A program made the position numbers and the translations under genes. From an uncultured Acidobacteriota bacterium (lineage in GTDB: Bacteria; Acidobacteriota; Blastocatellia; RBC074), in NCBI GenBank assembly GCA_963800895.1, contig CAWDDA010000022.1, positions 9,243 to 73,242 on the forward strand: DNA of 64,000 nt. Reading direction: 5' to 3'. Below, in pieces: positions 14,110 through 63,787 of the stretch. Every line of letters starts with the position of its first letter. Position 1 is the first letter of the stretch. The notes beneath the pieces were generated by a model that was not told the DNA's origin, made no database searches, and saw only the letters and a list, made by a program, of their open reading frames with translations.

Positions 14110-14256
14110 GAAGAAGGGGGTCGGGGGTCGGGGACCAGGGGTCGGGGTATGGAGTTCAAGCTTTAGCTTGCTGCTTCCAACCGAGCTATCGAAGAGCAAG
14201 CTAAAGCTTGAACTCCGTACCCCGACCCCTGGTCCCCGACCCCCGACCCCTTCTTC
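14110..14256. repeat. Heptamer-armed hairpin element E1 (G-rich arms + conserved core)
   Basis: GAAGAAGGGGGTCGGGGGTCGGGGACCAGGGGTCGGGGTAT-GGAGTTCAAGCTTTAGCTTGCT-22 nt loop-AGCAAGCTAAAGCTTGAACTCC-complement of the left arm. It lies between two convergent stop codons (14106-08 and 14259-61). Confidence 0.95.
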
Positions 14257-14258
14257 AT

Positions 14259-15275
14259 TCACTTCGCCAGCTGGTCGATTACCGCTGATGGGATCTTGAG
14301 GGTCAGCGTGACGTCGCTTGCTTCAGTCGCGATCTTTACCTGATCGAGCAGCTTCGCCCCCGTTTCGAACCGTGGGTCCTGATTACCCGAAAGAAATGAC
14401 TTCCCTAGAAATACCAGGCTCTTCAGACTGTCCTGCATCTGGATGGCGTGTTCCTTCGAGGCGGTGCGCAGGCGTGAATCGATGAGACCATCTTTCTCAG
14501 GCGTGAGATCAATGGTCCCAAAGATGACTTTCACAGCAGCCAGCTGCTCGAAAAGCTCACCCTGACTCTTAAGCACCTCGCGCAGCCCTTCGGGAAGCGT
14601 AAGACCAAAACGCATGAGCGCTGTCGTCCGTGTTTCTTTTAGCGCAGCAATCTGAGCCTCATTCGATTTGCCGGCTCCTTCGACAGGATGGAGCACAGCA
14701 GTGACTCCTTGAGTGTCCCCGACAACTACCCTTTGTGGACCGAGCGATGCAATAACCAGTTCGGCATCTTTTACTGGAGCCTGAGTGGGATTTGCGGGGT
14801 CGGCCGGTTTGAACCTGGTCAGGCGATACGCTGATTTGCCTTGAAGATCGAGAGTGTCGAACTGCCACTTCGCGGCTGCGGCCGACGTTTGAAGCCGTTT
14901 GACATCGAGCGCGACACCGTCAGCGATGAGTACTCCGCCACGCACGTTGATACCTTCCATCCTTAGTCCGATCAAAGTGGCTGTGACCTTGAGTGGATCG
15001 ATACCCGCCTTCTCCATGAAGGATTCGATGTCCTGGACGAGCTTTGAGACCCCTCCCGTCTGAATTGTTCTGAGGCGAGGTAAGAGATCTCGTGTCGCGC
15101 CGGGCAGATCGAGTGACGCTACGAGGTTCGACGGGGGAAGAAGCGCTGCCAACTCATCGAGTGTTCGTGTCGCAGCCGGTGGGACCGCAGCCTGAGGTCC
15201 TGTGACAGATTTCGATGTGGGATAAGAGAAAAGACCCACCGAAAGAATTGCTAAGAGAACAATCTGTTTGGGCAT
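14259..15275 (-). CDS. Hypothetical secreted protein
   Basis: The internal start MPKQIVLLAILSVGLFSYP gives a signal peptide. The ORF is long and uninterrupted, and I recognise no domain. Confidence 0.65.
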   Translation of the reverse strand: MPKQIVLLAILSVGLFSYPTSKSVTGPQAAVPPAATRTLDELAALLPPSNLVASLDLPGATRDLLPRLRTIQTGGVSKLVQDIESFMEKAGIDPLKVTATLIGLRMEGINVRGGVLIADGVALDVKRLQTSAAAAKWQFDTLDLQGKSAYRLTRFKPADPANPTQAPVKDAELVIASLGPQRVVVGDTQGVTAVLHPVEGAGKSNEAQIAALKETRTTALMRFGLTLPEGLREVLKSQGELFEQLAAVKVIFGTIDLTPEKDGLIDSRLRTASKEHAIQMQDSLKSLVFLGKSFLSGNQDPRFETGAKLLDQVKIATEASDVTLTLKIPSAVIDQLAK

Positions 15276-15364
15276 TGATTCAATCTCTCCATTTAGCGAC
15301 CTTGACAGTTGCACGAACCGGGAAGTACTTTCCAATTATAGCAGAACGCGATGGATAGATATCG

Positions 15365-15934
15365 ATGAGGGCTGCAGACACCGGGCGAAACGCATCGAAG
15401 GGCGGGCGCTCAGAAGAACACCTTTGGATGGTCGCACTTTACGAAGAGGAAGAGCGCACGGCGGAACTGCTCGACCGGCTGGCGGCCCTTGGGATTGACA
15501 CCAGCGAAGCGAGCATCGTTCGGGTTGAGCTAAGTCACACTGCGGAGACCGCTAAGCCATTTCCTTCCATCGCACCGATTACCCCAAAGTCCGTCGCTCC
15601 AACGGCGCGAAACTCTATTACAGGCGGGGTTCTGGGAAGCGCTGTGGGACTCGTTGCCGGAATTTTTGTTTACGCATCCGCCGCTGTACGGTTACCGCTT
15701 CCTGACAGAATGTTCGTTTACGCTTTCGTGTCGGCAATCTTGGGAGGCCTGTTGGGAGGAGTTAGCGGTGCTATATGGAGTGCGCTCGGACGGAATGTTC
15801 AGGCTAACGAGATTATTCGGAGGATTCCCCCCGATCGTGACGGGTTTCTGGTTGCAGTGAAGATGCGGCCTCAGATTGCGGAACAGGCCGAAGAGATTGC
15901 CCGCCGCCTTGGTGCCAAGGAGGTTCTCCTTTGA
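15365..15934 (+). CDS. Hypothetical membrane protein with glycine-rich TM segments (start may be 15428)
   Basis: Soluble N-terminal part (MVALYEEEERTAELLDRLAALGIDTSEASIVRV), then GGVLGSAVGLVAGIFVY and AILGGLLGGVSGAIW helices. Confidence 0.5.
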   Translation: MRAADTGRNASKGGRSEEHLWMVALYEEEERTAELLDRLAALGIDTSEASIVRVELSHTAETAKPFPSIAPITPKSVAPTARNSITGGVLGSAVGLVAGIFVYASAAVRLPLPDRMFVYAFVSAILGGLLGGVSGAIWSALGRNVQANEIIRRIPPDRDGFLVAVKMRPQIAEQAEEIARRLGAKEVLL

Positions 15935-15956
15935 ATTGCGATCCTTTGAGCTTCAA

Positions 15957-17102
15957 GTGGCTGAATACGATGTCATTGTCGTAGGGGCTGGACCAGCCGG
16001 CTCGAGCCTTGCCGCGCGGCTTGCAGCAACGGGGATTCGGGTTCTTCTGGCAGATCAAAGCCGTTTCCCTCGTGCCAAGCTATGCGGCGAATTCATCAGT
16101 CCGGAATGCATTGGAAAGCTTTCAGACCTGGGTGTCCTTGACAGTGTCATCGCTGCTGGCGCACAGCCTATAACGCAGATGACTCTGTATGCTTCAGACG
16201 GAAAGTTTGTATCTCTGCCAATGAACTGGCTCGCTGACGGCACTGGACCTGGCCTGGGTCTTTCCCGATTGCGCCTGGACTCTATACTGCTCAATCGGGC
16301 GAAAGAGGCTGGTGCAGAGGTGCGCGAAGGGCTTCGGATTTCATCATCGCCCTTGCAGACACGGGCTGGATGGAAAGAGGTCAAAGCGACTCATTCGGGC
16401 GACCTGTCGTCCGAGCGACTGAGAGCTCAGATAGTCGTCGATGCATCGGGCCGGTCGGCGGCCCTGAGCAGCGGATCACGAGTTGCCCGCGGTGGCAGGC
16501 TTTTTGGTTGCAAGGTGCATCTCACTGGCGTTGAAATTGACGCCCAAACCGGAAGCTTGTTCTTTTTTGAGAACGGCTATGGAGGCATCGTTCGGGTCGA
16601 AGACGGCTACGCAAACTTGTGTATGCTACTAAGCGAACGAGCTTTTCAACAGGCAGGCGGCGATCGGAAAGCGCTAATGGAAAACACGATTCTTCGAAAT
16701 CCGGCGGCGTCCGAGATGTTGAGCGGTACACGTGTTGCTAGTGCGTGGTTGGGCACTGGTCCTGTGCGATTTGGCCGCCAGCCTCCTGTTTCCGGAGTTA
16801 TTGCGGCGGGAGATGCCCATGCATTTATAGATCCCTTTACGGGCAGCGGGATTCTTCTTGCTCTCGAGAGTGCGGAATTGATAGCGCAGTCAATTATTCG
16901 CGGGTTCAAGAAGAAGAGCCCGGATGTCAATTTCATCGAGCGCGATTGCGAGACTGCAAGCAGGACGGCATTTTCAAGAAGGCTCCGCGCGTCATCCGTA
17001 TGGAGGAGAGTTGCCGATAATCCTGCGGCGCGCGAGGCGTTTCGAGCCATTATTGCGCGAGTTCCGAGTCTTGCGAGGGCGGTCGCCAGAAGTACGAGGT
17101 GA
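15957..17102 (+). CDS. FAD-dependent oxidoreductase (geranylgeranyl reductase-like family)
   Basis: A GTG start gives VAEYDVIVVGAGPAGSSLAARLAATGIRVLLADQSRFPRAKLCGEF (Rossmann GxGxxG, with the C-G-E motif typical of this family). A later GD motif is AAGDAHAFIDPFTGSGI. Confidence 0.8.
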   Translation: MAEYDVIVVGAGPAGSSLAARLAATGIRVLLADQSRFPRAKLCGEFISPECIGKLSDLGVLDSVIAAGAQPITQMTLYASDGKFVSLPMNWLADGTGPGLGLSRLRLDSILLNRAKEAGAEVREGLRISSSPLQTRAGWKEVKATHSGDLSSERLRAQIVVDASGRSAALSSGSRVARGGRLFGCKVHLTGVEIDAQTGSLFFFENGYGGIVRVEDGYANLCMLLSERAFQQAGGDRKALMENTILRNPAASEMLSGTRVASAWLGTGPVRFGRQPPVSGVIAAGDAHAFIDPFTGSGILLALESAELIAQSIIRGFKKKSPDVNFIERDCETASRTAFSRRLRASSVWRRVADNPAAREAFRAIIARVPSLARAVARSTR

Positions 17103-17113
17103 GCTGAGGCATG

Positions 17114-17182
17114 ACGTTCAAAGCTTCAGCTTTCCTCCTGTTCAGGCGAGCTAACCAACCAGCAAGCTATAGTTTGAAACTC
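17114..17182. repeat. Decayed copy of the conserved core hairpin
   Basis: GTTCAAAGCTTCAGCTT...AGCAAGCTATAGTTTGAAAC resembles GGAGTTCAAGCTTTAGCTT...AGCAAGCTAAAGCTTGAACTCC. It has several substitutions and no heptamer arms. Confidence 0.5.
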
Positions 17183-17287
17183 TATGTGTCCACTCCCTGA
17201 TTGATTTAGCGAATAAAGTGGATTACGATTCGTGACGTTGAAGCATCCTTCGAAAGGCGCATCACTTTTTACCCATTACAATCAGGC

Positions 17288-18853
17288 ATGAGTGAAGTCT
17301 GCCCAAATTGCAAGACCCCGCTACCGAGCCCGGACACTCGATTCTGTAATCAGTGTGGCCACGATTTTCGGCCGGGCACCGAAGAAGTGGAGCAGCTCAA
17401 ATCCGAGGACGTGTTCGAGACCAGTTCAGTCGAAGGACCGGCGGCCGCGCCGGCGGCATCCTTGCGGATTCTGCTCCGCGATGGTGGCGTGATCGAACGC
17501 CAGCTCGCGAAGGCAGAGACGACAATCGGCAAGGGCCCTCAGAACGACATAACACTTGCTGATCCGGCTGTATCCACCTCTCATGCGGCGATTCGCTTTG
17601 AGGCACAAGGCTATACGATTGTTGACCTTGGCAGCCGCAACGGCACGTTCGTGAATGATGCCAAACTTGAGGCTCCACGAGCCCTCGCTCACGGTGATGT
17701 CATTCGCATGGGGCGTTGTTCGCTGACCTACCGTCTGGCTCATGCCAGCGAGACCGCCGTGCTTGCACCGGCCGCAGTTGCTGCCATCGTCCAAAGCACC
17801 CAAGTGCGCGTGACCCAGGACGCACTTGCCAGTGCGGTGGTTGCCGCCGGGCTGAGTGATGAAGCTACCATCAAGGGCCTTCGCTCACGCCATCCATCAG
17901 GAGGAAGTCTGGTCAAGGCTCTGGTCGAAGAGCTCAAAATCAGCGATGGTGCTCTTCGCGATCTGATGAGCAGCAAGTTCAGCATTCCTACTGTGGACGT
18001 CTCACTTGCGAAGCTCGATCAAGGCATTACGGCTGCACTCAGTTCATCGGTACTGCGGGACGGTCTGGTCTTTCCCGTTGTTGGAAGACCGGGGCATCTG
18101 ACATTGGTTGTAGCCGATCCCACGGACGACGAGACAATCAAGAAGGTTAAACAAAAGTTCAAAGGCACGGTCGAATTGCGCCTGGCATCGGTCGGCGAGA
18201 TTCGATCAGCTCTTGACGCAGTCTACGCACCGAGGCTGGTCGGGGTGCTTCCGTCAGGCGAAAAGATCGAAGCCTTGTTAACCGAGCCCGAAATCGAGAT
18301 CGGAAAAGCATCGCACAATCAGATTGTGCTGACCCAGCCAACTGTAAGCAACACACATGCAGTCATCCTCGCACGTAACGGAGGGTACAGCATCGTAGAC
18401 CTGGGTAGCAGCAACGGCACCTTCGTGAACGGAGAGCGGCTTGGCGACGAGGCACGCACGCTTCAGCACGGTGACAAGATACAGATCGCGGAAGCGCTTA
18501 TGACGTTCCGGAACCCTTCCGAAACGACAGAGAACAAGACTGCAAGGCTTACACCGGACATACTGGAGGAGGTCCGAAGACGCGCAGGGCTCGGACTTCC
18601 CATCTCGACGACGGCGGTGCCAGTCGCGCGCCCTAAGGCTGTCGATCCGACAAAGCCACAGCTCTCGGAAGAGGAAAAAGAAGAGAAGAAGAAAAAGAAG
18701 AAGAAATCGGACGACAATCGCATAAAGGCCGCACTTATCGGTTCTGCCAGTCGCCTCGTTGCGCAGGTGATTGCAGGAATCGTCACCATTGGAGCGACAA
18801 TCTATCTGCTCAACCCGAATCAGGGAGGCTCAACACCCGACAAGGATACCTAA
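17288..18853 (+). CDS. Zinc-ribbon / FHA / T2SS-E N-terminal-like / FHA / C-terminal TM signalling protein
   Basis: CPNCKTPLPSPDTRFCNQCG (zinc ribbon). Two FHA cores: TIGKGPQNDITLADPAVSTSHAAI...VDLGSRNGTFVN and EIGKASHNQIVLTQPTVSNTHAVI...VDLGSSNGTFVNG. The central segment resembles the GspE/MshE N-terminal domain (LVKALVEELKISDGALRDLMSSKFSIPTVD...). It ends with a poly-Lys run and the TM helix LVAQVIAGIVTIGATIYLL. Confidence 0.85.
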   Translation: MSEVCPNCKTPLPSPDTRFCNQCGHDFRPGTEEVEQLKSEDVFETSSVEGPAAAPAASLRILLRDGGVIERQLAKAETTIGKGPQNDITLADPAVSTSHAAIRFEAQGYTIVDLGSRNGTFVNDAKLEAPRALAHGDVIRMGRCSLTYRLAHASETAVLAPAAVAAIVQSTQVRVTQDALASAVVAAGLSDEATIKGLRSRHPSGGSLVKALVEELKISDGALRDLMSSKFSIPTVDVSLAKLDQGITAALSSSVLRDGLVFPVVGRPGHLTLVVADPTDDETIKKVKQKFKGTVELRLASVGEIRSALDAVYAPRLVGVLPSGEKIEALLTEPEIEIGKASHNQIVLTQPTVSNTHAVILARNGGYSIVDLGSSNGTFVNGERLGDEARTLQHGDKIQIAEALMTFRNPSETTENKTARLTPDILEEVRRRAGLGLPISTTAVPVARPKAVDPTKPQLSEEEKEEKKKKKKKSDDNRIKAALIGSASRLVAQVIAGIVTIGATIYLLNPNQGGSTPDKDT

Positions 18854-18855
18854 CC

Positions 18856-19719
18856 GTGAAGTCAAAGTTTGTAAAGCCAGGAACTTTTTCGAGCTTTGAG
18901 GGTGGTCCCTACGAAGCGTCTGGGGTCTCCTGGGTCCAGGACTCAAACACGCTTCTGATTGTGAATGACGGAAAGCCCGGCGAGATTTTGATGATGACGA
19001 TCAACGAGAAGGGAAGGCAGGAAGGTCCAATGGCTTCTCTCCCTCTGAACGCTCAGATCATCGATCCCGAGGCAATCTCAAGTGATGGCCACTGGTTTTA
19101 TATTGTTGGCTCGCAATCCGAGCCGCAGAATGGGGCATTGAATGCGCTCGTGAGATTTGCATTCGATCCTGCGACCAAGACCATCAGGGGAAACCCTGAG
19201 GTAATTCCCGACTTTCGCAGCCTGCTGCTCTCGCGTGTGCCAGACGTTACTGGGCAAGGCAGCAAGCCGGGCAAAGAAGGTGGATTGAATATCGAGGGAC
19301 TTACATTTGATCCGATCAATAATCGTCTGCTGCTAGGGTTGCGTTCCCCAGTTATCGGCGGAAAGGCAGCGGTTATTCCAATGCGCTTGAAAGATCCTCT
19401 CGGGCCGTTGTCCGCAGACAATGTCCAGTTCTCCCCACGCATAATCCTCGACCTTGGAGGGCAGGGGATTCGCGGAATCGACTACAATCCAAAGCTCAAG
19501 GTGTTTACTATCTTATCGGGATCGACCGAGTTGGAGAAAAAGAATGACTTTGGATTTTGGGAATGGGGAGGCGCGCCTGAGGATGTGCCGCGCCTGTTCT
19601 TCAATCTCGACGAGAACGCCAAACCCGAAGGCGTGACAAATGTCACGATTAACGGTAAGGAGTTCGTAATCATTGTTGGCGACGCGAGCAAGTACCTGAA
19701 GCTCGATTACGCGCCCTGA
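18856..19719 (+). CDS. DUF3616-like (beta-propeller-like) protein
   Basis: GTG start 3 nt after the FHA gene stop. GLNIEGLTFDPINNRLLLGLRSP and IRGIDYNPKLKVFTILSG match the DUF3616 pattern from memory. Confidence 0.65.
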   Translation: MKSKFVKPGTFSSFEGGPYEASGVSWVQDSNTLLIVNDGKPGEILMMTINEKGRQEGPMASLPLNAQIIDPEAISSDGHWFYIVGSQSEPQNGALNALVRFAFDPATKTIRGNPEVIPDFRSLLLSRVPDVTGQGSKPGKEGGLNIEGLTFDPINNRLLLGLRSPVIGGKAAVIPMRLKDPLGPLSADNVQFSPRIILDLGGQGIRGIDYNPKLKVFTILSGSTELEKKNDFGFWEWGGAPEDVPRLFFNLDENAKPEGVTNVTINGKEFVIIVGDASKYLKLDYAP

Positions 19720-19743
19720 GTCCTTGTTTCCAGGAGGCAATAG

Positions 19744-20754: not shown

Positions 20755-20770
20755 GAGTTGAAGTGCCGTG

Positions 20771-20892
20771 GAAGGTGCTGAGTGCTGAGTGCTGAGTGCT
20801 GAGTATGGAGTTCAAGCTTTAGCTTGCTTTCACAAGTTCGATGCTAGAGCCAAGCTGAACTCAGCACTCAGCACTCAGCACTCAGCACCTTC
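20771..20892. repeat. Hairpin element E2 (GTGCTGA x4 arms, core with right-side deletion)
   Basis: GAAG-(GTGCTGA)x4-GTAT-GGAGTTCAAGCTTTAGCTTGCT...AGAGCCAAGCTGAACTC-(AGCACTC)x3-AGCAC-CTTC. Confidence 0.9.
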
Positions 20893-22791: not shown

Positions 22792-22822
22792 GCCTCTCAT
22801 CTCCCGGTGAGAGGCTTTTTTT
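22792..22822 (+). terminator. Rho-independent terminator
   Basis: GCCTCTCA-tctcccgg-TGAGAGGC followed by TTTTTTT. Confidence 0.7.
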
Positions 22823-23016
22823 AAGAAGGGGTCGGGGGTCGGGCGAGCCGGGGGCCGGGAATCAGAATATTTTCCATTTGTCATTTTAGATTTGTCATTT
22901 GTTATTGATTCCGATTCGTCCTCAAGGTGAATGACAAATGAGAAATGACAATTGGGAAATCCTCTACTTCCCGATCCCCCGACCCCCGACCCCCGACCCC
23001 CGGCCCCCTCTTCTTC
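22823..23016. repeat. Nested hairpin element E3 (outer G-rich heptamers, inner TGTCATT heptamers, no conserved core)
   Basis: AAGAAGGGGTCGGGGGTCGGGCGAGCCGGGGGCCGGG ... CCATTTGTCATTTTAGATTTGTCATTTGTTATT ... AATGACAAATGAGAAATGACAATTGG ... CCCGATCCCCCGACCCCCGACCCCCGACCCCCGGCCCCCTCTTCTTC. Confidence 0.9.
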
Positions 23017-25955: not shown

Positions 25956-25957
25956 GT

Positions 25958-28801: not shown

Positions 28802-28869
28802 CCTTCGTTGCCTTTGTTTCCTTCTGTTAATAAGAGGATCACAACAGAAGGCAACAAAGGCAACGAAGG
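28802..28869. repeat. 27-nt inverted repeat built from GGCAAC-containing short repeats
   Basis: CCTTCGTTGCCTTTGTTTCCTTCTGTT-14 nt-AACAGAAGGCAACAAAGGCAACGAAGG (26/27 complementary). Confidence 0.75.
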
Positions 28870-30266: not shown

Positions 30267-30387
30267 GAAAGTGCTGAGTGCTGAGTGCTGGTTGGAGTTC
30301 AAACTTGGCTTGCTCGTATCATTCGAGTTACGTGACCGCAGGCTAAAGATTGAAGTCCATACTCAGCACTCAGCACTCAGCACTTTC
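30267..30387. repeat. Hairpin element E4 (GTGCTGA x3 arms, diverged core)
   Basis: Starts directly after stop TAA: GAAA-(GTGCTGA)x2-GTGCTGG-TT-GGAGTTCAAACTTGGCTTGCT...GCAGGCTAAAGATTGAAGTCC-ATACTCAGCACTCAGCACTCAGCAC-TTTC. Confidence 0.9.
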
Positions 30388-30457
30388 CAACATACCCTGT
30401 GGACTCAACTTAGGAAGTTATGTTATCTTCTCCGAGGTTCTTTTATTTTGATGATCA

Positions 30458-30510
30458 ACGCGTGGCGATTTAAGGCTACTTGCTCCACCTAAAAAACTGC
30501 TAAAGAGTCG
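30458..30510 (+). ncRNA. Candidate SAM-II/SAM-V-like riboswitch aptamer
   Basis: AACGCGTGGCGATTTAAGGCTACTTGCTCCACCTAAAAAACTGCTAAAGAG contains the CGAUUU...GGCU..UUG...AAAAA..GCUAAAG pattern I recall for SAM-II. It sits in the leader of a methionine-cycle gene. Confidence 0.4.
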
Positions 30511-30518
30511 GGAAGAGA

Positions 30519-30553
30519 CCTCGCGTTGGAGACGGCGCGAGGATTTTTATTTT
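30519..30553 (+). terminator. Leader hairpin + U-run (attenuator / RBS sequestrator)
   Basis: CCTCGCG-ttggagacgg-CGCGAGG then ATTTTTATTTT running into the ATG at 30554. The only GAGG upstream of the start lies within the 3' stem arm. Confidence 0.55.
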
Positions 30554-32408: not shown

Positions 32409-32556
<148 letters not shown>

Positions 32557-35500: not shown

Positions 35501-36279
35501 GAGCTTTTGGCTGATGCGAAGCAGTTGCTTGAAGAGATCATCGCAAAGAAGTGGTTCAAGGCCCGTGGTGTTTACGCATTCTTTGCAGCAAATTCGAAAG
35601 GTGACGACATTTCAGTTTTCGCCGATGAGACACGACAGGATGAGCTCGCTGTCCTTCATACGTTGCGGCAGCAGTTAGACAAGGGACCGTCTCAACCGAA
35701 CCTTGCGCTGTCAGATTTCATCGCACCGTTTGACACCGGGCTCAAGGATCACATTGGTCTCTTTGCGGTAACTACAGGTCTTGGCGTTGACGAGTTGTGC
35801 GCGCGTTTCGAGGCAGATCATGACGATTACAATTCGATCATGTACGAAGGCCCTTGCTGACCGCCTGGCCGAAGCCTTTGCAGAGTTTGCTCACAAGAAG
35901 GCGAGAGACGCATGGCGGATACGGGCTAAGCGAAAACTTGAGCACCGATGAACTCATCAAAGAAAAGTATCGAGGCATCCGGCCCGCTCCTGGCTATCCC
36001 GCATGCCCTGATCATACTGAGAAGAAAGCGATCTTTGAGCTGCTGAATGCCGAGTCCAATGCAAGTGTCCGTTTGACGGAGAACTATGCCGTACTGCCGG
36101 CGAGCTCGGTCTGTGGCCTCTATTTTGCGCACCCGGAATCGCGCTATTTCACCGTTGGAAAGATCGATCGCGATCAGGTGGCAGACTATGAGCGGCGCAA
36201 AGGAATGACCCGCCGCGAAGTGGAACTCTGGCTCTCGCCCAATCTCGCATATGAACCGGAACGAGTGTTAAGCATGTAG
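32573..36279 (+). pseudogene. metH: Cobalamin-dependent methionine synthase MetH, two +1 frame breaks (35843 and ~35913); start codon uncertain
   Basis: All MetH modules are present: Hcy domain ([11 protein letters not shown]...[11 protein letters not shown]), pterin-binding, B12-binding ([11 protein letters not shown]), and AdoMet activation ([18 protein letters not shown]). Between the tracked ORFs the intermediate frame reads [24 protein letters not shown]. The conserved N-terminus ([20 protein letters not shown]) lies upstream of the first ATG (32639). Confidence 0.9.
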
Positions 36280-36290: not shown

Positions 36291-36427
36291 GAGTGCTGAG
36301 TGCTGAGTGCTGAGTGCTGAGTATGGAGTTCAAGCTTTAGCTTGCTGGTGTGGCATTCGAATGTGCACGACAGCAAGCTAAAGCTTGAACTCCATACTCA
36401 GCACTCAGCACTCAGCACTCAGCACTC
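36291..36427. repeat. Hairpin element E6 (GTGCTGA x4 arms + perfect core)
   Basis: GA-(GTGCTGA)x4-GTAT-GGAGTTCAAGCTTTAGCTTGCT-25 nt-AGCAAGCTAAAGCTTGAACTCC-ATAC-(TCAGCAC)x4-TC. It ends 8 nt before the ATG at 36436. Confidence 0.95.
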
Positions 36428-37941: not shown

Positions 37942-38092
37942 AGTAGTGGTCAGTGGCCAGTGGCCAGTGGCCAGAGGTAGTGACCAGTGGCCAGTAATGC
38001 AAATCACTGACCACCAAGCACTACAACTGACCACTGACCACTGACCACTGACCACTGACCACTGACCACTGACCACTGACCACTGACCACTG
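37942..38092. repeat. Hairpin element E7 (AGTGGCC/AGTGGTC vs GACCACT heptamers, asymmetric copy number)
   Basis: The left arm has ~7 imperfect units (AGTGGTC AGTGGCC AGTGGCC AGTGGCC AGAGGT AGTGACC AGTGGCC). The right arm has 9 perfect GACCACT units (38029-38091). It ends 2 nt before the rluB ATG. Confidence 0.9.
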
Positions 38093-43973: not shown

Positions 43974-44096
43974 GGTACGTGGTACCAAGGTACTGTGTGC
44001 CGTTTGGAGTTCAAGCTTTTAGCTTGCTTCTTACACGCTCGAGTGCAAAGAGCAAGCTAAAGCTTGAACTCCAAACGGTACAAAATGCCTTGGTAC
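43974..44096. repeat. Hairpin element E8 (GGTAC-rich arms + core)
   Basis: Directly after stop TAA: GGTACGTGGTACCAAGGTACTGTGTGCCGTTT-GGAGTTCAAGCTTTTAGCTTGCT-loop-AGCAAGCTAAAGCTTGAACTCC-AAACGGTACAAAATGCCTTGGTAC. It ends 1 nt before the ATG at 44098. Confidence 0.9.
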
Positions 44097-45876: not shown

Positions 45877-46029
45877 GAAGAAGGGGGTCAGGGGATCAGG
45901 GGCCGGGGGTCGGGGTTTGGAGTTCAAGCTTTAGCTTGCTGTTCGCATTCCACCTGCAAAGAGCAAGCTTAAGCTTGAACTCCAAACCCTGGCCCCCGAT
46001 CCCCGACCCCCGGTCCCCTCGATTTCTTC
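45877..46029. repeat. Hairpin element E9 (G-rich heptamer arms + core)
   Basis: Directly after stop TGA: GAAGAAGGGGGTCAGGGGATCAGGGGCCGGGGGTCGGGGTTT-GGAGTTCAAGCTTTAGCTTGCT-loop-AGCAAGCTTAAGCTTGAACTCC-AAACCCTGGCCCCCGATCCCCGACCCCCGGTCCCCTCgatTTCTTC. Confidence 0.95.
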
Positions 46030-50043: not shown

Positions 50044-50167
50044 GAAAGTGCTGAGTGCTGAGTGCTGAGTGCTGAGTATGGAGCTCAAGCTTTTAGCTTG
50101 CTGTCGTACAATCGGTAATTTATGAGCAAGCTAGAAGCTTGAACTCCAGACTCAGCACTCAGCATTC
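50044..50167. repeat. Hairpin element E10 (GTGCTGA arms + core) between convergent genes
   Basis: Directly after stop TAA: GAAA-(GTGCTGA)x4-GTAT-GGAGCTCAAGCTTTTAGCTTGCT-loop-AGCAAGCTAGAAGCTTGAACTCC-AGACTCAGCACTCAGCATTC. The ppa stop codon (50152-54) lies inside the right arm. Confidence 0.95.
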
Positions 50168-54723: not shown

Positions 54724-54926
54724 TCAGGGGTTAGGGATCAGAGGTCAGGGGCCAGTGGTATAGGACCAAAGCATTTGTCATTTATCATTTGTCATTCGCT
54801 TGGCTTGGACTCAAATAACAAATGACAAATGACAAATGACAAATGCTAAATGTCTTGGTCCTATACTCCTGATCCCTAACCCCTAACCCTTCCCCTGACC
54901 CCTGATCCCCGACCCCCGATCCCCTC
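54724..54926. repeat. Three-tier nested hairpin element E11
   Basis: Outer G-rich heptamers (TCAGGGG TTAGGGA TCAGAGG TCAGGGG... vs ...CCCTAACCCCTAACCCTTCCCCTGACCCCTGATCCCCGACCCCCGATCCCCTC). A unique 11-bp middle stem TATAGGACCAA/TTGGTCCTATA. Inner TGTCATT/AATGACA heptamers. It abuts the stop (54927-29) of the minus-strand TonB receptor gene. Confidence 0.9.
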
Positions 54927-57900
54927 TTAGAAAACAATCTTCACCCCAAACTGCATGACTCTGGGTCCGCCGATTGTGTTGCTGATCGTGCCAAAGTCAG
55001 TGAGATCCTGGAGGTCATTGGCAGGATTTGCGAAGTTGGCTTGATTGAAGATGTTGAAAATATCCCATCGGAACTCAAGTCCGACGCGTTCAGTGATGGG
55101 CGTGTTCTTCGAGAGACCAAAGTCGAATCGCTTCTGAGACGGTCCTCGGAGGACGTTTCGTCCCAGGTTTCCGAAGCCGAGATTCCCCGGATAACCTCCC
55201 GCAGCAGTCAAAGGCGAGCAGAGAACCGACGCGTTGAAATAACCTGTCGTGATGTCGCTGTTTTGTTGACGCAGTTGGTCGATAGTCCCACAGAGTGATG
55301 GCCGGCCGAATCCGAGACGGTAAAGACCACCAGCTCCAAGACGGAGTGTTCCGTACTGGGAAACATTGCCGACTTCCGGTTCGGCTGAGAAGATCGAGAA
55401 TGGGCTACCCGACTGCACCTGTGCGAACCCGGAGATCTGCCAGCCCTTGAGAAACCCAGAATCGCCGAGCGGAAGCTGATAGACAAAGCTCGCGCTGAAC
55501 CGGTGAGTACGATCGAAGTCCGACACGGCACGATTGCTTTTCAGATTCCGCTGATCTCCCTGGACCACGAATCCAGTGTTAGGTGTATCTGGCTTCCCGC
55601 TTCCAGCCGTGCTTCCCGGATCCGACGAAATGTAGTCCATCGACTTTGACCAGGTATAGAACGTGTTGAACGAGAGTCCTTTTGAGAACCGCTGAGTGAG
55701 TCCCAGTTGCAGGCCGTGATAAATCGAGTTGGCAGAGGACTGCAGAAGTAAAGCTTCCGGCACGTTGAACCCAAGGATTGACCCGCGGGCTTCAAACCCT
55801 AGTAAGGCGCCTGCGGCGTTGCTTAGATTGTAGTCGAGTGCACCACCGAGAGCAGAGTTGGGGAAACCGAACGCGATTCCGCGCCCCCGCTCCCGCTGTG
55901 TGGATGCGGCGCGCAACGGCCCGTTAAGGACATTTGGATTGCCCGTTGACTGAAGCTGCTTCTGATATGCGGCATCGTATGCATCATTGAATCTTTTGAA
56001 GATTGCGTCTGGCGCTGCCGAGCTGTTCAAGTCGTAGCCCTGATTGAACGCGATTGCCTGTAGGAGCTTTGTTCCCTTTGTCCCCACATAGCGCGCTTCT
56101 ACCATCATGTTCTGAGTGAGCTCGTACTGGACTCCAAGATTCCATTGCTGTATGTAAGGTGTCCTAAGATTGCGGTCGACTGACCGGAATTCGAACGTCT
56201 CCGCGACATTGCCCAGCGCCGGAAGACCGGTTGCCAGATCAACCGGATTGTTGGTTCCGTCCGATTGCCGGGTCACGGGCGTGCCGTCGCGAATTACGTA
56301 TGTGCCACCGGTCTGATAAACCATCCGGTTCGGAAGATAGCGATTGAACGGAAGATTGACATCCTGCTGCGAGAAGGCGGTAGTGATCGGAACCTGACGA
56401 GTCGGAGCCGTCACTTCGATTTCCCTCAGGAAGGGATAGTTGCTGAAAATCGTGTTAATGAATGCAGCTGAAGGCCGGTCAAAAAAGAATCCGTACCCTC
56501 CGCGAATAACCAGCTTGTTGCTGCTGAACGGCGAGAATGCAAATCCGAACCGCGGAGCAAAGTTGTTAAGATCCTGACCGTTCAGTGTGTGGTCATTGTC
56601 TGCCTTCAGTGATGTAGCAATCGCGCCGTTGATCGCCGCGAACTCTGTATTTTGCACATTTGCCGGCACGAGGAACGACGCTAAAGGGTTTTCCGGGTTC
56701 GTCAAACCTTCGAAGTCGAAGTTGCCGATCCGCCCGATTCTTCTCTGTAGGCCAGCCGAACCACTCCCAACGGAGTCCCAGGTTGAGGGTCAGGCGGTTG
56801 GAAGCTTTCCAGTCTGTTGCGATATAGGCGCCAAGATCCTGAAAGCGAAAACTCTTGTCAGTAATCCCAAACTGTGTGTCACCTTCGGTCGCACGGCCTG
56901 CAAGAAACTGTGTGAAGTTTTCCCACTTTTCAAATTCAGTGGCCTGTTCTTCCGGCAAGTTCGAATCGTAGCTATGATGTTTGTACTCAAATCCAAATCG
57001 ATAGACGTTCGCTCCACGCGAGTAGGTGACGTTGTCAGAAAAGCTTAGCGTCTTCTGCTGCCGGCGGTTGAACGAGTCATTTGGGCCCGCGAAGGACAGA
57101 TTCGAGAGATTGTTTCGAAAGATATAGTGGCCGAGTCTTCGCGTTGCATTGCTGTCGTCGAAGAACACTGCCGGATTTGGAATCCCAACAGATTCATTTG
57201 TGATCCCAAGAAACGGTTCATCAAGACTACGCGTGTTGTTGAGAAAGAAGTAACCGAAACGAGCTTCATTGATTACCGTCGGACTGAAAGTATGAATGTC
57301 GGATAGGGCAAACGTCCGATTCCTGTCATTCCGCAGAAGTGTGACCGGTGATGCCAGGCTTGAAGGATCGGGAAATGGATCAAATCCCGGGAAATTCGTA
57401 AAGAAAAATACTCCGCTCAGGCGGTTCGCCTCGCTCACTTGTCCATCAAGCCGTGTCGTGAATTGATTTTGCTCGAACTGTGCCGGTTGAACATTCCGCT
57501 GCCGTATCAACGGGTTGCCTCCAGTCCAGGGTGCAACGGTCGTATCCGAGCCCACGCGCGCACCACCCGGGCGCGGCCCTGGAATGAAAAACCCGCCGGT
57601 GACGGGGTTGATTAGATTGAGTAAACGTACGCTCGTCGGTGAAATCTGTGCTTCTGTGAGAGGGAAGGTTGGGTTCAATTGTCTGAAAGCGGCTACGAGA
57701 TTTGCTGGGGTTCGCTCGCCCTGAATCAGAGCGAGAGCCTCGGGAAGAACGCTGATGCTCGATGCAGTCGGAACAAACCCTGTGTCCGCTTTCGTGTATT
57801 GGTAACCGCCGAAGAAGAAGAATTTGTCCGCAATCACGGGGCCGCCTACAGTAAATCCGCCTTCATGCCGTCGCGCCTTTGGCTTGTCGATCCCGTCACG

Positions 57901-58950: not shown

Positions 58951-59020
58951 CCGGGAGCGCTGGCCTCTGGCCGGCGCTTGATCCCAGGAGACGCGCCGGT
59001 CAGAGACCGGCGCTCCCAGG
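58951..59020. repeat. Type-B inverted repeat (GGGAGCGC motif) in a divergent promoter region
   Basis: CCGGGAGCGCTGGCCTCTGGCCGGCGC-15 nt-GCGCCGGTCAGAGACCGGCGCTCCCAGG. The arms are complementary apart from a few mismatches, and the terminal motif is shared with 25958-25992. Confidence 0.6.
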
Positions 59021-59053
59021 GTGTGCTAATCTCTCAATCCGAGGTAATTCGTT

Positions 59054-60733
59054 GTGGAACTGTTGGATACTCTTTCCGGGTTTACTGAATCAGAACGCCA
59101 GACGGGGGCGCGGCTGTTGCGGCTTGCAACCGAGATTGACCGAATCGAGGGCTACATCGAGCCTCATGCTGTCGCGGTAACGAGTCTCGCCACCAGAATA
59201 GCCGAGCGTATGGGTTTGCACGGAGCGGACCTGCAGGCTCTCAAGTTCGCGTCTCTCGTTCATGATGTTGGCGAGCGAGCGCTCAAGCGTCAATACCTTC
59301 TTCGGCGAGCACCGCTAACACTTGAGGACCGCGTAGACCTCGCACGCCACCCGATCCTCGGCGAACAGGCAGCTTCGGAGTTTCGACTTCCTCGGAAGAG
59401 TCAGCTGCTTATTCGTTGGCATCACGAGTGGTGGAATGGAAAGGGCTATCCAGACGCGCTCGCGGGCGAGCAGATTCCGCTTGGCGCGAGAATACTTCGA
59501 GTCGCTGATACCTGGACAGCGCTGGTCTCTGATCGTCCATTCCGGCCAAGCCTGAGTCATGTACAGGCACGTCGATCATTGAGGACTTTTGCCGGACTCG
59601 AGTGCGATCCCGAGGTTGTGAGAGTTCTGCTGGAAATCCTTGAGGAGGACGATCCCGAGCGCCCGTCAGTTGTTTCGAGTTGGCAGGATAATGGTGAAGA
59701 GACCTTTCCATTCAACCCGTTTCTTCTCAATCAGGTGGCCGTTGATACGCTTCACGATTCAGGAGCAATACCGCGAGATCACTCGCCCGCTTCACCCTCA
59801 ACGAGCTTTCTGACACCCAGAGCGCGCTGCTGGATAGGATTTGAATTGAGCGTCCTCAGGCGAATAAAGTTCGATTCGATTGCCATTCCCTTTTCGGGTC
59901 GTCCCGATCTCGAGTGGCACCTGAATTTCTGGGGAAAACAGATTGTGACGAACGACATCTGCCGCTGGGCATGGTTTGAGGCCCGCGCACTATTTGAAGG
60001 TAGTGCGCCGCGTATTGACCTCACAAACCTGCTTCAAAGCGTAGACGATCCCGGTCTTTATCTGCATAACCCCGCGTTGCGCAACTGGATGAATTTAAGC
60101 GACGCGCGATGGTTCGACCGGCTCTGGCAGAATATTCAACAGATCGAAACTCAATCGCTGCGTCTGAGCGCCATGAAGACTGGCCTCGAGCTTGGTGATT
60201 ACGTCTTTTCGTTCAAGACCCGGACCGAGGGTCTGCGACGTCCACTCTCCGAGGTATTTGAAGAGCTTTGGCTGAGTGAGAAGCCGTGGCTCGACAAAGG
60301 ACGGCGGCATTATGCGGGTAACCATGATGCTCACGATTTTGTGAAGGAAGTACAGGCTGACCTCTGTTTTATCCGGCTGCCTGGCCCTGAAGGTCTTCGG
60401 TTTTCGCTCGACAGAACTGTTTCGGGCTGGAGGGAGACATGGGTTCGCGGCGAAGATGGCTGGCTTGATTCCGTTGTAGAAGCTCGCAAGGGACGACTTG
60501 GAGGCGCGGTACTTTCTAAAGAGCACTACCTCGCACATGTATCAGCCTTTTTGGAGCAGGCGCGGCATATCCCAACCTGGGCGATAGTGCATGTCGATGA
60601 TGGATCGCTCTCGGCCGCTGATCTGGGCGATGTGATCCGGCAGCTCCGTCGCCGGGTTGAAGTAGCCTACTCCAAGGATTTTACGGGAGTTCTTGGCGGC
60701 GGTCAGGCATACATTATTATGGCGAATGCGTAG
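59054..60733 (+). CDS. HD-GYP domain protein with ~350-aa uncharacterised C-terminal domain
   Basis: GTG start 9 nt after GAGG; ...ASLVHDVGE...HPILGEQ...[17 protein letters not shown]...[18 protein letters not shown] (HD-GYP signature). I recognise no motif with confidence in residues ~215-559. Confidence 0.8.
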
Positions 60734-60828
60734 GATCGAGTGCCGGAATTCCGCCTGAAGGCGGTACAACATGCCGCGCCACCGAGGACCGCGATATAAT
60801 TTATGAATAAAATTCTTACGAGGTAATA

Positions 60829-61164
60829 ATGGAAGTTAACGTCCGCGAGAGCGGTCAGGTAACAATCATCGATCTGCATGGAAATCTCACCATTGGCCGC
60901 AGCGAAGAGAGTTTGCGCGAAACGATCACTCGACTCCTCGCTGAGGACCGGAAACTTCTTCTTATCAATTTGGCTGATGTCCCGACAATTGACAGTTCCG
61001 GCATTGGTGCAATGATCAAGTCGTACAACAGCGTCAAAGAAGCGGGAGGCCGGATCAAGCTCATGAATCCTTCGAGAATTGCTCGCCAGTTGCTGTCTAT
61101 CACCGGCCTTCTTTCTGTTCTCGAGACGTTTGACGACGAGGAACAGGCAGTCAAGTCCTTCTGA
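60829..61164 (+). CDS. STAS-domain anti-sigma-factor antagonist (SpoIIAA/RsbV-like)
   Basis: [13 protein letters not shown]...[21 protein letters not shown] (phosphorylatable Ser in the DSSG context)...[22 protein letters not shown]. Confidence 0.85.
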
Positions 61165-61181
61165 ACTCACGTCGCCTCCGA

Positions 61182-62862
61182 ATGCAGAAATCAGCTCAGC
61201 TAAAAGTCACGACCCGTTTTGGTGGTGAGCGCGTGATCTCGCTCAGCAAACCGGTCTTTACAATCGGACGAAAAGCAGAGAATGACCTGCAACTGCTGCA
61301 CGACACTGTTTCGAGGCAGCATGCCGAGATCATCTGTGAAGACGATAGCTTCTTCCTGGTTGATGTCGGTAGCAAACGGGGGACATTCGTCAACGGCCAG
61401 AGGATAGAGCGTATTGAGCTTCAACACCTCGACAGGATTCTGGTCGGCGGAGACGAGGACCAGCAGCTTCAGTTCTTTGATGAGAACGTCTCCGAGGCTT
61501 CAGCGATCTTTGACTCTCACTCGAATCTCAATACTCACACAGTCGCTCTCCGACAGAATGCGCCTCGCATCAGCGAATGAAGAGCTTCAGAAGCTATCGC
61601 GCTTTGTCGAAGTCAATCAGGCGTTCAAATTCTCGATGACTCCTGACGATGTTCTATGTCTGATTGTCGATGCGGCCATCGAGATCACGCAGGCGGACCG
61701 CGGCTTTCTCATGCTGCGCAACAATGAAGGAAACCTCGAGTTCAAGGTTGCCCGGGATCGCGACCGAAACTGGCTTGTTGGAAACGAGTTCGAGATGAGC
61801 CGGTCCGTCGTGGAAGAGGCATTCAAGCAGAATCGAAGTATTGTCATCAACAGTCATGTCGATAATGACCCGCGAGAGAGTGTCCGGCATCTCGAACTGA
61901 GATCTATCGCGTGCATTCCACTTCGACGCTTTCAAATGTCGGAGAACATGGACGCGACGACCGTGTTCAAGCGCGATGTGATCGGGGTGCTTTATGTTGA
62001 TAGCCACGTGCTGAGAGGCGCGCTTACAGAGACCTCTCTTCGACTTCTCGAGTCCCTCGCGTTTGAAGCTACCAAATCGCTTGAGAGCGTGCGCCTGATG
62101 CACGAAGAGCAGGAGAAGAAGAACCTCGAGGGCGAACTGGGCACTGCCCGTCAGGTCCAGGTTGCCCTTTCACCTACCAGCTTCAAGCATCCTCAACAGT
62201 TCGAGGTCGCCGCGGCGAGCATTCCATCAAGGCATCTCGGAGGAGATTTCTATGACCTGATTGCATGCGGTGATGGAAGCTCGGTCTTTGTTCTGGGTGA
62301 TGTATCAGGGAAGGGAATTCCAGCAGCTTTGCTGGCAGCGATGTCTCAGGGTGCCCTCCAGGCACAGTTTCTGGGTGGTAGCATGTCGCTCGACGCGATC
62401 ATCTCGAGTCTTAACCGCGTGCTCGTGCAGAAATCCGCGTCGGGCCGCTTTCTGACACTTTTCTGCGCAGTGCTGCACAAGGATGGCACTTTCAACTATA
62501 TCAACGCCGGCCACAACCTTCCCATCGTGGTTCGAAATGACGACCAGATCGAATTTCTGACCACGAAATCGGTGCTCCTCGGCGCCTTTGAATCCGCCAG
62601 ATACGATATGAGGACGACGGTCCTCGAGCCGGGCGATATAGTTGTTATGTATACCGATGGCGTAACTGAGGCAATGAACGCTGCTAACGAGATGTTTGGA
62701 GATGAGCGGCTCGAGCGTTTGATCGTCAGCGTTCGTGACTTGAGCGCAGAGCAGATTCAGAACCGGATCCTTGAAGAAGTTGTCACCTTCACCGGTGACT
62801 TGCCGCAGAGCGATGACATTACGCTTCTGACGTTGAAGATGCGGCCTCCCCGGATCGCGTGA
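61182..62862 (+). pseudogene. FHA-GAF-PP2C (SpoIIE/RsbU-like) phosphatase, one +1 frame break near 61550
   Basis: FHA: [25 protein letters not shown]...[13 protein letters not shown]. After the break comes GAF ([25 protein letters not shown]...IACIPL...GVLYVD), then PP2C (GGDFYDL...[17 protein letters not shown]...YINAGHN...MYTDGVTEA...DDITLL). Confidence 0.85.
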
Positions 62863-63688
62863 GCAGGACGCCACCGATGATCATCACTGCACCAGCCGCC
62901 TGCCACCACGTCGGACGTTCACCGAGCACAGGCCATGCGACTGCAGCCGCAATCAACGGAATGACACTTCCGTAAACCGACGTCTGTACGGCGCCAATCC
63001 TTTGCACTGAGCGGCTGTAGAAAAGGTAAGCAATCGTCATCGAGAACCAGGCTGAAAATAGCAGTCCGAACCAGACGACGCCGCTCAATTCAAAAAGATC
63101 AATGCGCATCAGGTCAGGAGCTGCGATCGCAACAAGACCCGGCGTTCCCGCGATCATCGTGAGAGTGGTCAGGCGCAGCGTCGAAATCCTGCCTGCGAGC
63201 GTCCTCATTCCAAGAACGTAGACTACCCAGCACAGGGCTGACGCCAGCGAGAGAAGATCGCCCAGGATCGTTCGCAGTGAAAACGAAGCTCCGCGCGAGA
63301 CCATGACCACGACAATGCCCAGTGATGCGATTACAATGCCGGCCGCCATGCGTCGCGTGACCCGCTCAATTCCGATGATCGCGCCTGCGAGTGCGACAAA
63401 TGCCGGAGTTGTTGAGAGGATCATTGCGCTGTTGGCTGTGGTCGTGCGGGAAAGACCCTGAACGAAGAGAGCCTGGTAGAGCGTGTGTCCGACGATGCCA
63501 AGCAAAACGAGCCGCCAGAAGGTACCTTTGGGGACCATCAGGCTGCCTTCGCGCCAGCGAAGCAGGGGAACCAGCGTGATCGATGCGATGACAAATCTAA
63601 GGGCGGCGAATGAGAGCGGAGCGATCTCAGCGAGCGATGCTTTGACAAAAGCAAAGTTTGCGCCCCAGATAACGACAACAATCGCCAT
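62819..63688 (-). CDS. EamA/DMT-family transporter
   Basis: Ten predicted TM helices in two EamA halves ([12 protein letters not shown]..., ALCWVVYVL...). The 3' end overlaps the convergent phosphatase gene by 44 nt. Confidence 0.8.
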
Positions 63689-63764
63689 CCCTGGATCGAA
63701 TCGAAACCATCGAGATTGGCTACGTATGTTTACTTCCAGTGCGCACGCCCCGAAATTGAAGGTT

Positions 63765-63787
63765 TAGAGTTCAAGCTTTAGCTTGCC
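63765..63787. repeat. Solo left half of the conserved core
   Basis: TAGAGTTCAAGCTTTAGCTTGCC matches GGAGTTCAAGCTTTAGCTTGCT. No complementary right half appears in the following 200 nt. Confidence 0.6.

Follow-up and report, generated by a model that had tools for sequence, protein, structure and literature searches.

The question raised by this locus is what kind of element fills its intergenic gaps with long, near-perfect inverted repeats. The locus is a window of 64,000 nucleotides (nt) from an uncultured Acidobacteriota bacterium of the Blastocatellia (GenBank assembly GCA_963800895.1, contig CAWDDA010000022.1, positions 9,243 to 73,242), in which a first-pass annotation had listed eleven intergenic inverted repeats of 120–200 nt; all of them were found at the coordinates it gave. 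We suggest, with a probability of about 0.72, that these are composite intergenic palindromes whose centre is a REPIN (an inverted doublet of repetitive extragenic palindromic, or REP, units) with a RAYT-type (REP-associated tyrosine) transposase behind it, and whose arms are heptamer arrays similar to the STRRs (short tandemly repeated repetitive DNA) of cyanobacteria. The core belongs to a REP family that brackets a RAYT clade, the arms are tandem heptamers that change together on both sides, and comparison with relatives fits gain, loss and remodelling of the elements at fixed sites past stop codons.

The modular anatomy proposed for the hairpins (outer clamp, heptamer arms, core and loop) is borne out by folding and by repeat calls. 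Minimum free energies of the eleven as RNA lie between −37 and −141 kcal/mol; as single-stranded DNA (ssDNA), for five of the eleven, they lie between −23 and −85 kcal/mol with z-scores of −6 to −22, and none of 200 shuffles per element folds as well as the real hairpin. Stems comprise 50–80 predicted pairs, and Tandem Repeats Finder calls period-7 arrays of 2.9–12.7 copies in both arms of every element. The outer GAAG/CTTC clamp is seen in six elements. One detail needs correction: the loops, given as 21–25 nt, actually measure 13–39 nt.

Stable hairpins downstream of genes, two of them between convergent genes, recall rho-independent terminators. However, no T-run follows any of the 11 hairpins, while canonical terminators with a T-run do exist in the window at 22792–22815 and 30519–30542, the former directly upstream of a hairpin. 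These have stems of 10 pairs, as against the 50–80 predicted here, a conserved core of 22 nt would be atypical for a terminator, and several of the hairpins stand between closely spaced genes of the same strand, so that termination is a highly improbable explanation.

The conserved core is a REP unit, and its inverted doublets are REPINs. In the window, the 22-nt core has nine matches at no more than three mismatches, with 0 expected, and a covariance model of the REP unit finds 13 units at E < 0.05, which are spread over 51 kb and all lie between open reading frames (ORFs). They make up five clear inverted doublets, a sixth doublet (30267–30387) with one scoring arm at 30290–30315 (22.8 bits) and a visibly decayed partner, and two single scoring units at 20803 and 63762. 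The core had been claimed for seven named elements, and the model's units, together with decayed partners, cover it in all of these. Four of the eleven hairpins carry no REP unit; two of the four are nested, with G-rich heptamers outside and TGTCATT inside.

The REP unit is about 27 nt long and consists of a tag (GGAGTT), a stem of 5 base pairs (bp) and a TTYA loop; in this lineage it is written as GTATGGAGTTCAAGC-type. Its distribution was scanned with the 20-mer GGAGTTCAAGCTTTAGCTTG in one genome per species. Among the matches listed, more than 110 stretches contain the exact 20-mer, most of them from Verrucomicrobiota, the other carriers being metagenome-assembled genomes (MAGs) of Acidobacteriota, Planctomycetota and Lentisphaerota (Victivallales), with single cases elsewhere. 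In these other loci the motif takes the form GTT-GGAGTT-CAAGC-TTTA-GCTTG, a loop of 6–40 nt, and CANNC-TRAA-GNNTG-AACTCC-AAC, and the tag varies as GGAG, AGAG or TGAG followed by TT.

The mini-stem of the second arm shows compensatory variants (AGC/GCT, CGC/GCG, GGC/GCC, CGG/CCG, GCC/GGC, CAC/GTG, ACC/GGT), with pair counts of AU 35, CG 25 and GC 16 at one pair and GC 64 and CG 10 at the next; a second-arm mini-stem changed in this way is no longer able to pair with the first arm. The small hairpin thus covaries even where arm-to-arm pairing has been lost, and therefore selection acts on the small hairpin, as it does for REPs. An alignment was made of 78 distinct units that had been pre-filtered for at least four of five pairs, one arm per element being set by the search pattern. 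Of the cells of its 5-bp stem, 98.5% are paired, four of the five pairs vary on both sides, and the covariation score is 0.417 as compared with 0.091 in shuffles (0 of 500 reach it); no slid structure attains the values of the real stem. The 14-nt dyad to which attention had been drawn is the very part that covaries across phyla.

When the doublets of all loci are taken together, 122 pairs are oriented head-outward, 17 are opposite and 70 are tandem. A unit of about 27 nt that occurs mostly in head-outward inverted doublets matches the definition of the REP and the REPIN (PMC3116915). The first-pass annotation had implied that the core stands outside any named REP family, which does not hold, since the centre is a REPIN, a described class; it was right that no Rfam family matches. 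Only tRNA passes the gathering threshold, the E-value mode of the Rfam search returns only generic microRNA-hairpin models far below their thresholds, and searching the literature for the core strings retrieves only unrelated primer sequences.

Other identities for the core were tried and rejected. The outer GTTGGAG...CTCCAAC stem has a polarity opposite to that of integron attC sites, whose consensus is R''(RYYYAAC)...R'(GTTRRRY). A reading of locus L023, with three cores at 71-nt spacing, as a CRISPR array fails because the "spacers" are identical, so that they are tandem duplications. Spread by phages is not indicated either: among 2.9 million viral contigs, 2 contain the exact core, and no RAYT relative was found there or in those two loci. 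In one of these two carriers (the IMG/VR contig L197, 11658–12430), two outward REP units bracket a cassette of about 730 nt without a RAYT relative. Tandem REP arrays with periods of 26–71 nt are seen in L023 (6236–6508), L029 (6441–6592), L042 (1421–1632 and 2254–2342), L088 (768–918) and L182 (1867–2852), and such arrays often adjoin a RAYT gene.

The suggestion to seek a RAYT gene was fruitful, because in other genomes a RAYT family is flanked by this very REP unit. When E. coli RayT was used as query for all ORFs in the first 110 loci, six Y1-type proteins emerged, of which three (in L034, in L042 and, as a decayed copy, in L076) form one family with the motifs LPNHYH (HUH) and NYVHHNP (tyrosine); the protein has 201 aa in both L034 and L042. 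A full doublet lies within about 10 nt of each gene end in L034, tandem unit arrays stand on both sides of the gene in L042, and the decayed gene copy of L076 lies beside a doublet. The three other Y1 transposases (L002, L096 and L032) were rejected as partners of the core, since they belong to other families and have other flanking repeats.

The 201-aa family has 1852 homologues; among the best 120, most are exactly 201 aa long and they are 54–79% identical to the query. The few homologues with a named source come from Verrucomicrobia, Aureliella (Planctomycetota) and the candidate divisions BRC1 and KSB1, and the protein clusters of the family are mostly found on one or a few contigs only. 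Three members score 66–83 bits with the NCBIfam model NF047646 (REP_Tyr_transpos), one of the three passing its cut-off of 80, and a comparison of the family profile with the PDB gives a match to 4ER8, the structure of E. coli TnpA-REP, at E = 7e-9.

The association of gene and unit was then followed in 80 metagenome loci with the RAYT gene, which were retrieved through the protein and total 280 kb. The covariance model finds 288 units in them, and a strict pattern gives 212 hits as against 0 in shuffled sequence. Units are densest right beside the gene, with 0.91 and 0.93 per 100 nt over the first 100 nt on its two sides; the values drop to 0.41 and 0.28 over the following 100 nt and do not exceed 0.06 farther away than 300 nt, and none of the 80 loci has a unit inside the gene. 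Units occur within 200 nt on both sides in 37 of the 65 two-flank loci by the strict pattern; the covariance model recovers diverged units in several loci that this pattern scored as having none.

These data bear on classical miniature inverted-repeat transposable elements (MITEs), that is, on insertion-sequence derivatives that arose by deletion and are mobilised by a DDE transposase acting on their terminal inverted repeats. The defined ends with their GAAGAAG...CTTCTTC clamp, the several near-identical arm types within 50 kb and the presence or absence of elements at orthologous sites would all suit a MITE, but the conserved part is internal rather than terminal, and the only gene family found to be bracketed by the core is the Y1/HUH RAYT. 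Moreover, a target-site duplication is not visible in the flanks of any copy, and a parent insertion sequence is absent from the window; a MITE origin is accordingly very hard to uphold.

The heptamer arms are a module separate from, and more general than, the REP centre. Period 7 is the commonest tandem-repeat period in the other loci (85 arrays in 794 kb). A strong linkage of heptamers to REPs was rejected, because the 100 nt around REP units, which make up 4.1% of the bases, hold 8 of the 85 arrays, an enrichment of no more than about 2.3-fold. Inverted complementary pairs account for 54 of the 162 period-7 arrays in the loci and the window together, most of them beginning 0–30 nt past the stop of an ORF of at least 100 aa, and the heptamers paired in this way are many and unrelated (AATTGGT, GAACGTC, ATTTACG, AATGACC/TTGGTCA, CAGTAGG and others). 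Heptamer hairpins without the core also occur in loci of Verrucomicrobiota, Planctomycetota and Acidobacteriota.

A period fixed at 7 with a variable sequence might suggest arrays of binding sites, one per heptamer, for a nucleoid or single-strand-binding protein (IHF/HU, gyrase or a cold-shock-like protein). Paired tandem 7–9-mers of Geobacter metallireducens were read as sites of a global regulator (PMC2700814), and MacGregor (2015) cites CspB as a binder of heptamer repeats (PMC4679880). Nevertheless, dozens of unrelated heptamers argue against one sequence-specific binder, no candidate protein was identified, and the complementarity of the arms would be left unexplained, which makes such arrays a very unlikely answer.

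The REP tag GAGTTCA has look-alikes among the heptamer arrays (GAGTTGA, AGTTCGG), namely those at L006 5099–5130, L009 6656–6687 and L109 5234–5265; the REP flanks of L133, L162 and L169 are also listed here, and several lineages have AGTTCAG-AGTTCAA, a tandem, as the tag itself. Many heptamers share GTCA/TGAC or CTGA. These resemblances hint at a link between the REP tag and the heptamer arrays. The inverted repeats that flank some RAYT-like (TIRYT) genes share GGGGWSAS (PMC3733652), to which the GGGGTCA-G heptamers described here fit; we take this only as a lead.

The hairpins had been described as abutting stop codons. Ten of the eleven do begin 0–16 nt from a stop, about seven of them at 0–2 nt, but the element at 22823 lies 125 nt downstream, directly behind the canonical terminator 22792–22815. 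These distances are measured to the boundary drawn in the first-pass annotation or to the first base of the array; in 32409–32556 the paired stem itself begins about 39 nt into the element.

What happens at such positions over time may be read from four relatives (L193 to L196) that share the gene order of the window between 29 and 50 kb, and whose IspH is 95, 87, 85 and 75% identical to that of the window, respectively; a BLAST of the window against the first 190 loci found no synteny. The metH/esterase gap holds GTGCTGA arms with a REP doublet in the window and the same element in L193, where the arms differ at 1 of about 55 positions and the loop has diverged; L194 has a bare REP doublet without heptamer arms, L195 a palindrome of a second REP-like family (see below), and in L196 the gap is empty (33 nt). 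In the esterase/rluB gap, the AGTGGCC hairpin of the window is represented by a GGGGGTC/GGGGGCC hairpin with the same boundaries in L193 and by an AGTGGCC hairpin with other copy numbers in L194, while L195 has a spacer of about 20 nt and no hairpin is evident in L196. Between the hypothetical gene and the gene for a 494-aa protein, the window has G-rich heptamers with a REP doublet; the element is of the same type in L193, with a reverse-complemented loop, and in L194, with a different loop, and L195 combines the same arm type with a different centre, L196 having an AGTGGCC hairpin. Finally, the HIT/TPR gap carries GTAC-type arms with a REP doublet in the window, the same left end with a TGTCATT hairpin as centre in L193, a palindrome of the second family in L194 and only 36 nt, without an element, in L196; L195 has coding sequence there and was left out of this comparison.

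The same gaps are thus hot spots with module turnover, and presence, absence or remnants of elements at orthologous gaps fit gain and loss. The claim that pairing is kept while sequence changes has stood up well: across the orthologous gaps of four relatives the heptamers and centres differ, and the arms are always complementary. The loop at 45941–45962 of the window is the reverse complement of the loop at about 16950–16975 of L193, the 95% relative, which may reflect either a flip of the spacer or re-insertion of the element in the opposite orientation.

An artefact of assembling or sequencing a long-read MAG, to which the several frameshift-split genes of the window might point, can be practically dismissed, since the same elements stand at orthologous sites in independent assemblies. 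The core, besides, is present in more than 110 stretches (among the matches listed) that stem from numerous projects, and some of the contigs, to judge by their names (k141_, NODE_), were put together by short-read assemblers.

A more serious alternative is that the hairpins are RNA elements selected by the host, which stabilise the upstream mRNA, serve as RNase III sites or couple stop to start, the DNA repeats being only the substrate. Besides their start within 16 nt of a stop in ten cases of eleven, the hairpin 37942–38092 and its orthologues in L193 and L194 span exactly the distance from the TGA to 2–3 nt before the ATG, and L195 has at the same site a short spacer resembling a ribosome-binding site instead. 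The survival of arm complementarity through sequence turnover also suits a function in RNA, and for cyanobacterial STRR hairpins these functions have likewise been put forward (PMC2670836). On the other hand, the empty or remnant sites of close relatives mean that the genes function without the elements, the conservation is dyad-symmetric on both strands, and the core flanks a gene of a transposase family. Strand asymmetry gave no signal: 15 hairpins are more stable as the sense strand and 7 as the antisense strand, with 56 versus 62 G-U pairs. We consider selection on RNA an unlikely primary cause; it is compatible with the composite-palindrome explanation and not exclusive of it.

How the composite palindromes may arise can be outlined as follows. 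E. coli TnpA-REP and the IS200/IS605 transposases recognise a hairpin in single-stranded DNA; by analogy, the RAYT would recognise the small hairpin and its 5' tag on ssDNA and copy the doublet to new sites in trans. The heptamer arrays probably alter their copy number by slippage, and one arm would be corrected against the other by template switching or by recombination between the arms, as the orthologous sites suggest; the inverted loop fits recombination between arms. The modules gather just past stop codons, often at the centre of a pre-existing hairpin, so that gaps are repeatedly occupied and modules exchanged. This position is probably a matter of insertion tolerance and possibly of a preference for hairpin targets, hairpin apices being potentially favoured insertion points. 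In transcripts, the elements would form very stable 3' or inter-cistronic hairpins, which may protect the upstream mRNA or bring a stop near the next start, plausibly as a side effect.

Several points weigh against this explanation. The loops of different window copies are unrelated in sequence, which is unexpected for a recent copy-and-paste of whole elements. The RAYT profile finds nothing among the ORFs of the window and of L193 to L196, and the lineage-typical flank TATGGAGTT occurs in 0 of the 80 RAYT loci; therefore, the link of the window copies to an active RAYT is indirect. Elsewhere, 6.6% of doublets lie inside longer palindromes, as compared with 1.7% in the control, so that enclosure of the doublet by arms is a trait of this lineage for which no explanation emerged. 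An Acidobacteriota MAG, CAWEYR01 (loci L019 and L110), comes nearest in element architecture. Nor does anything that we found show why the period is 7. A bolder view would see in the heptamer hairpins a widespread class of self-renewing palindromes, covering Acidobacteriota, Verrucomicrobiota, Planctomycetota and the cyanobacterial STRRs, in which some dedicated machinery fixes the period at 7 and restores one arm from the other. Such palindromes would home past stops, their apex would be a landing pad for REPINs and other palindromes, and the cell might use them to bridge stop and start. We regard this view as improbable and offer it as speculation.

The individual elements illustrate how the modules are combined. 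The first hairpin (14110–14256) has a GAAGAAG clamp, GGGGTCG/GGGGACC arms at 14116–14147 and 14220–14250, a REP doublet at 14147–14173 (+) and 14194–14220 (−), and a 22-nt loop; the genes on its two sides converge and have their stops 1 nt and 2 nt away from it, and its DNA fold reaches −84.7 kcal/mol (z −20). GTGCTGA arms are found in four elements. In 20771–20892 (4.3 copies in each arm, 16 nt past a stop), the REP unit at 20803–20829 (+) is intact and the right one decayed. The element 30267–30387 begins 0 nt after a TAA and has a GAAAG clamp and a degenerate REP doublet. In 36291–36427 (4.6 copies in each arm, 11 nt past a stop, DNA z −21.7), the doublet lies at 36321–36347 (+) and 36371–36397 (−), and the same element is present at the orthologous site of L193. 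The last, 50044–50167, has a GAAAG clamp and a doublet at 50076–50103 (+) and 50124–50151 (−); its neighbouring genes are convergent, and it overlaps the stop codon of the one for inorganic pyrophosphatase. A GAAGAAG clamp is seen again in 45877–46029, with GGGGTCA/GGGGATC arms and a doublet at 45915–45941 (+) and 45961–45987 (−), 0 nt after a TGA.

The hairpins without a REP unit comprise the nested 22823–23016, whose outer arms are GGGGTCG-type and inner arms TGTCATT, following the intrinsic terminator; the nested 54724–54926, with outer G-rich heptamers and inner TGTCATT, which abuts the stop (54927) of a minus-strand outer-membrane protein gene; 32409–32556, with TGTCATT/AAATGAC arms, a paired stem at 32448–32552 and an orthologous copy in L193; and 37942–38092, in which an AGTGGCC arm of 7 copies faces a GACCACT arm of 12.7 copies and which occupies the gap between a TGA stop and a point 2 nt short of the following gene's ATG. 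A decayed copy had been reported at 17114–17182; a doublet is present there, 11 nt past the stop of ORF 15876–17102, but it is only a weak, partial match (11.9 bits). The unit at 63762–63788 (+, 37.3 bits) is single and has no partner. A twelfth hairpin, absent from the original list, was found at 28802–28869; its arms are tandem repeats of about 9 nt (CCTTTGTTG and CAACAAAGG), and its DNA fold has −28.1 kcal/mol (z −11). It lies about 20 nt past a stop and just upstream of a tRNA-Ser promoter-like site.

In the remaining hairpin, 43974–44096, a REP doublet at 44002–44029 (+) and 44050–44076 (−) is enclosed by outer arms that represent the second palindrome family (GGTACGTGGTACC...). This second REP-like family, with the sequence GTACrTTGTAC-CGCC-TTYA-GGCG-GAAT(T)CC, is organised like the first, its tag being GGAATT, its stem 5 bp long and its loop TTYA/TRAA; in its doublets the tags point inward, and it displaces the first family at some orthologous gaps. 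A single unit of it (GGAATT-CCGCC-TGAA-GGCGG-TACAAC) lies at 60745–60775 of the window, and further copies, with doublets in L193 to L195, are found at L193 1329–1390, L194 15121–15215 and L195 7605–7672.

The elements had also been said to be missing from the first block of the window, called block A. No element does occur before 14 kb, but this is trivial and says nothing about biology, because the GC content falls from 67% to 49% within about 300 nt (12450–12750) and the ORF that spans the drop is a frame artefact. In that ORF (11043–14108, 1021 aa), a solute-binding fragment (SBP_bac_5) is joined to GC-rich DNA read out of frame, with an Arg-rich translation, and to the gene of a PpiD/SurA-like rotamase truncated at its 5' end, and the two blocks look like two joined sequences, either by a chimeric join or at an island edge. 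IspH homologues with a named source come from Acidobacteriota, Acidobacteria or Blastocatellia at about 65–69% identity. The outer-membrane receptor of the window contains a CarboxypepD_reg domain, an architecture common in Acidobacteria, and no exact match to the S1 protein of the window is on record.

A candidate SAM-II aptamer (RF00521; 18.8 bits as against a gathering score of 36) lies at 30452–30542; it is followed by the canonical terminator 30519–30542 with its T-run, stands upstream of a homocysteine S-methyltransferase/MTHFR gene and is conserved in L193 to L196. The three genes split by apparent frameshifts are the MTHFR fusion (32047/32091), metH (35854–35860) and that for a TonB-type outer-membrane protein (56593–56705); L194 has an uninterrupted metH (1232 aa). 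The splits may stem from indel errors of long reads or mark pseudogenes.

These results extend the REPIN–RAYT association, so far studied mainly in gamma-proteobacteria, to a RAYT clade in Verrucomicrobiota, Planctomycetota, BRC1 and KSB1, the range of the REP unit reaching also Acidobacteriota and Lentisphaerota. An enzyme that is 54–79% identical among the listed homologues, together with a DNA unit of about 20 nt that is identical across phyla, makes a natural and well-defined enzyme–substrate pair for work on RAYT–REP recognition. STRR-like hairpins are not confined to cyanobacteria, and comparative genomics opens a way to the long-standing question of the nature of STRRs: orthologous sites show how such hairpins evolve, with arms changing jointly, loops diverging or flipping, and modules being swapped at fixed boundaries. 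In practical terms, palindromes with repeat arms and stems of 50–80 predicted pairs that border coding regions can mislead gene prediction, and in these soil phyla they are likely to hamper assembly.

Among known systems, the bacterial interspersed mosaic elements (BIMEs) of E. coli are mosaics of REPs and linker motifs that stand after genes and inside operons, their linkers being fixed motifs. The elements described here are likewise a mosaic around inverted REPs, but their arms are tandem heptamer arrays, and both the REP sequence and the RAYT clade are different.

The centre is best compared with REPIN–RAYT systems, which were reportedly treated by Nunvar in 2010 as well. In the biology outlined by Bertels and Rainey (2011; PMC3116915) and Bertels (2017; PMC5581495), as here, a short palindromic unit with a conserved 5' tag forms inverted doublets with a less conserved spacer, the copies are many and extragenic, a HUH/Tyr transposase (here in other genomes) is bracketed by the units, and tandem clusters lie beside its gene. 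Unlike the GTAG- or CGTC-tagged REPs (Di Nocera 2013; PMC3733652), the unit has the tag [G/A/T]GAG-TT and a stem of only 5 bp, and the strings GGAG and GAGTT are absent from that paper. Published REP sets include species-specific and shared families, whereas the 20-mer is identical across at least four phyla, and the RAYT clade falls outside the groups whose taxonomy is described in PMC5581495, where no Verrucomicrobia or Planctomycetes are mentioned. Unlike in other REPINs, the doublet of this lineage sits inside heptamer arms.

For these arms the closest counterparts are the STRRs, whose original description is reportedly that of Mazel et al. in 1990. TGTCATT is a cyclic permutation of TTTGTCA, a variant of STRR2, TT(G/T)GTCA; among the arms we take it to be the only one that fits an STRR2 variant, so that the elements would fall outside STRR1–3. 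TTGGTCA itself is present in the Pirellulales loci L093 and L096. A literature search for STRR heptamer strings gave nothing informative, and a cyanobacterial origin was rejected, as HIP1 (GCGATCGC) is not enriched (6 matches as against 4.7 expected). In filamentous cyanobacteria, STRRs are usually repeats of 7 bp able to form hairpins, e.g., between hupS and hupL; their function is unknown, and transcript stability or translational coupling has been proposed (PMC2670836). The arms described here are likewise tandem 7-bp intergenic units able to form hairpins between genes. They differ in their host, an acidobacterium (with examples in Verrucomicrobiota and Planctomycetota) rather than a heterocystous cyanobacterium, in their many more heptamer types, in enclosing a REP doublet, and in that placement at stop codons and turnover at orthologous sites are documented for the window hairpins.

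Heptamer direct repeats are known in Beggiatoaceae and cyanobacteria (PMC4679880), and Geobacter metallireducens has 3–5 tandem 7–9-mers, paired on opposite strands at a variable distance, in many intergenic copies (Aklujkar 2009; PMC2700814). Compared by description only, the Geobacter arrays differ in sequence and phylum, have no REP core described and are read as IHF/HU sites. The centre of the palindromes joins the REPIN–RAYT kind as a new member, notable for a DNA unit that is identical across phyla, and the arms are STRR-like outside cyanobacteria; the combination of these modules and their behaviour at fixed sites vary known kinds in a new way, without amounting to a categorically new system.

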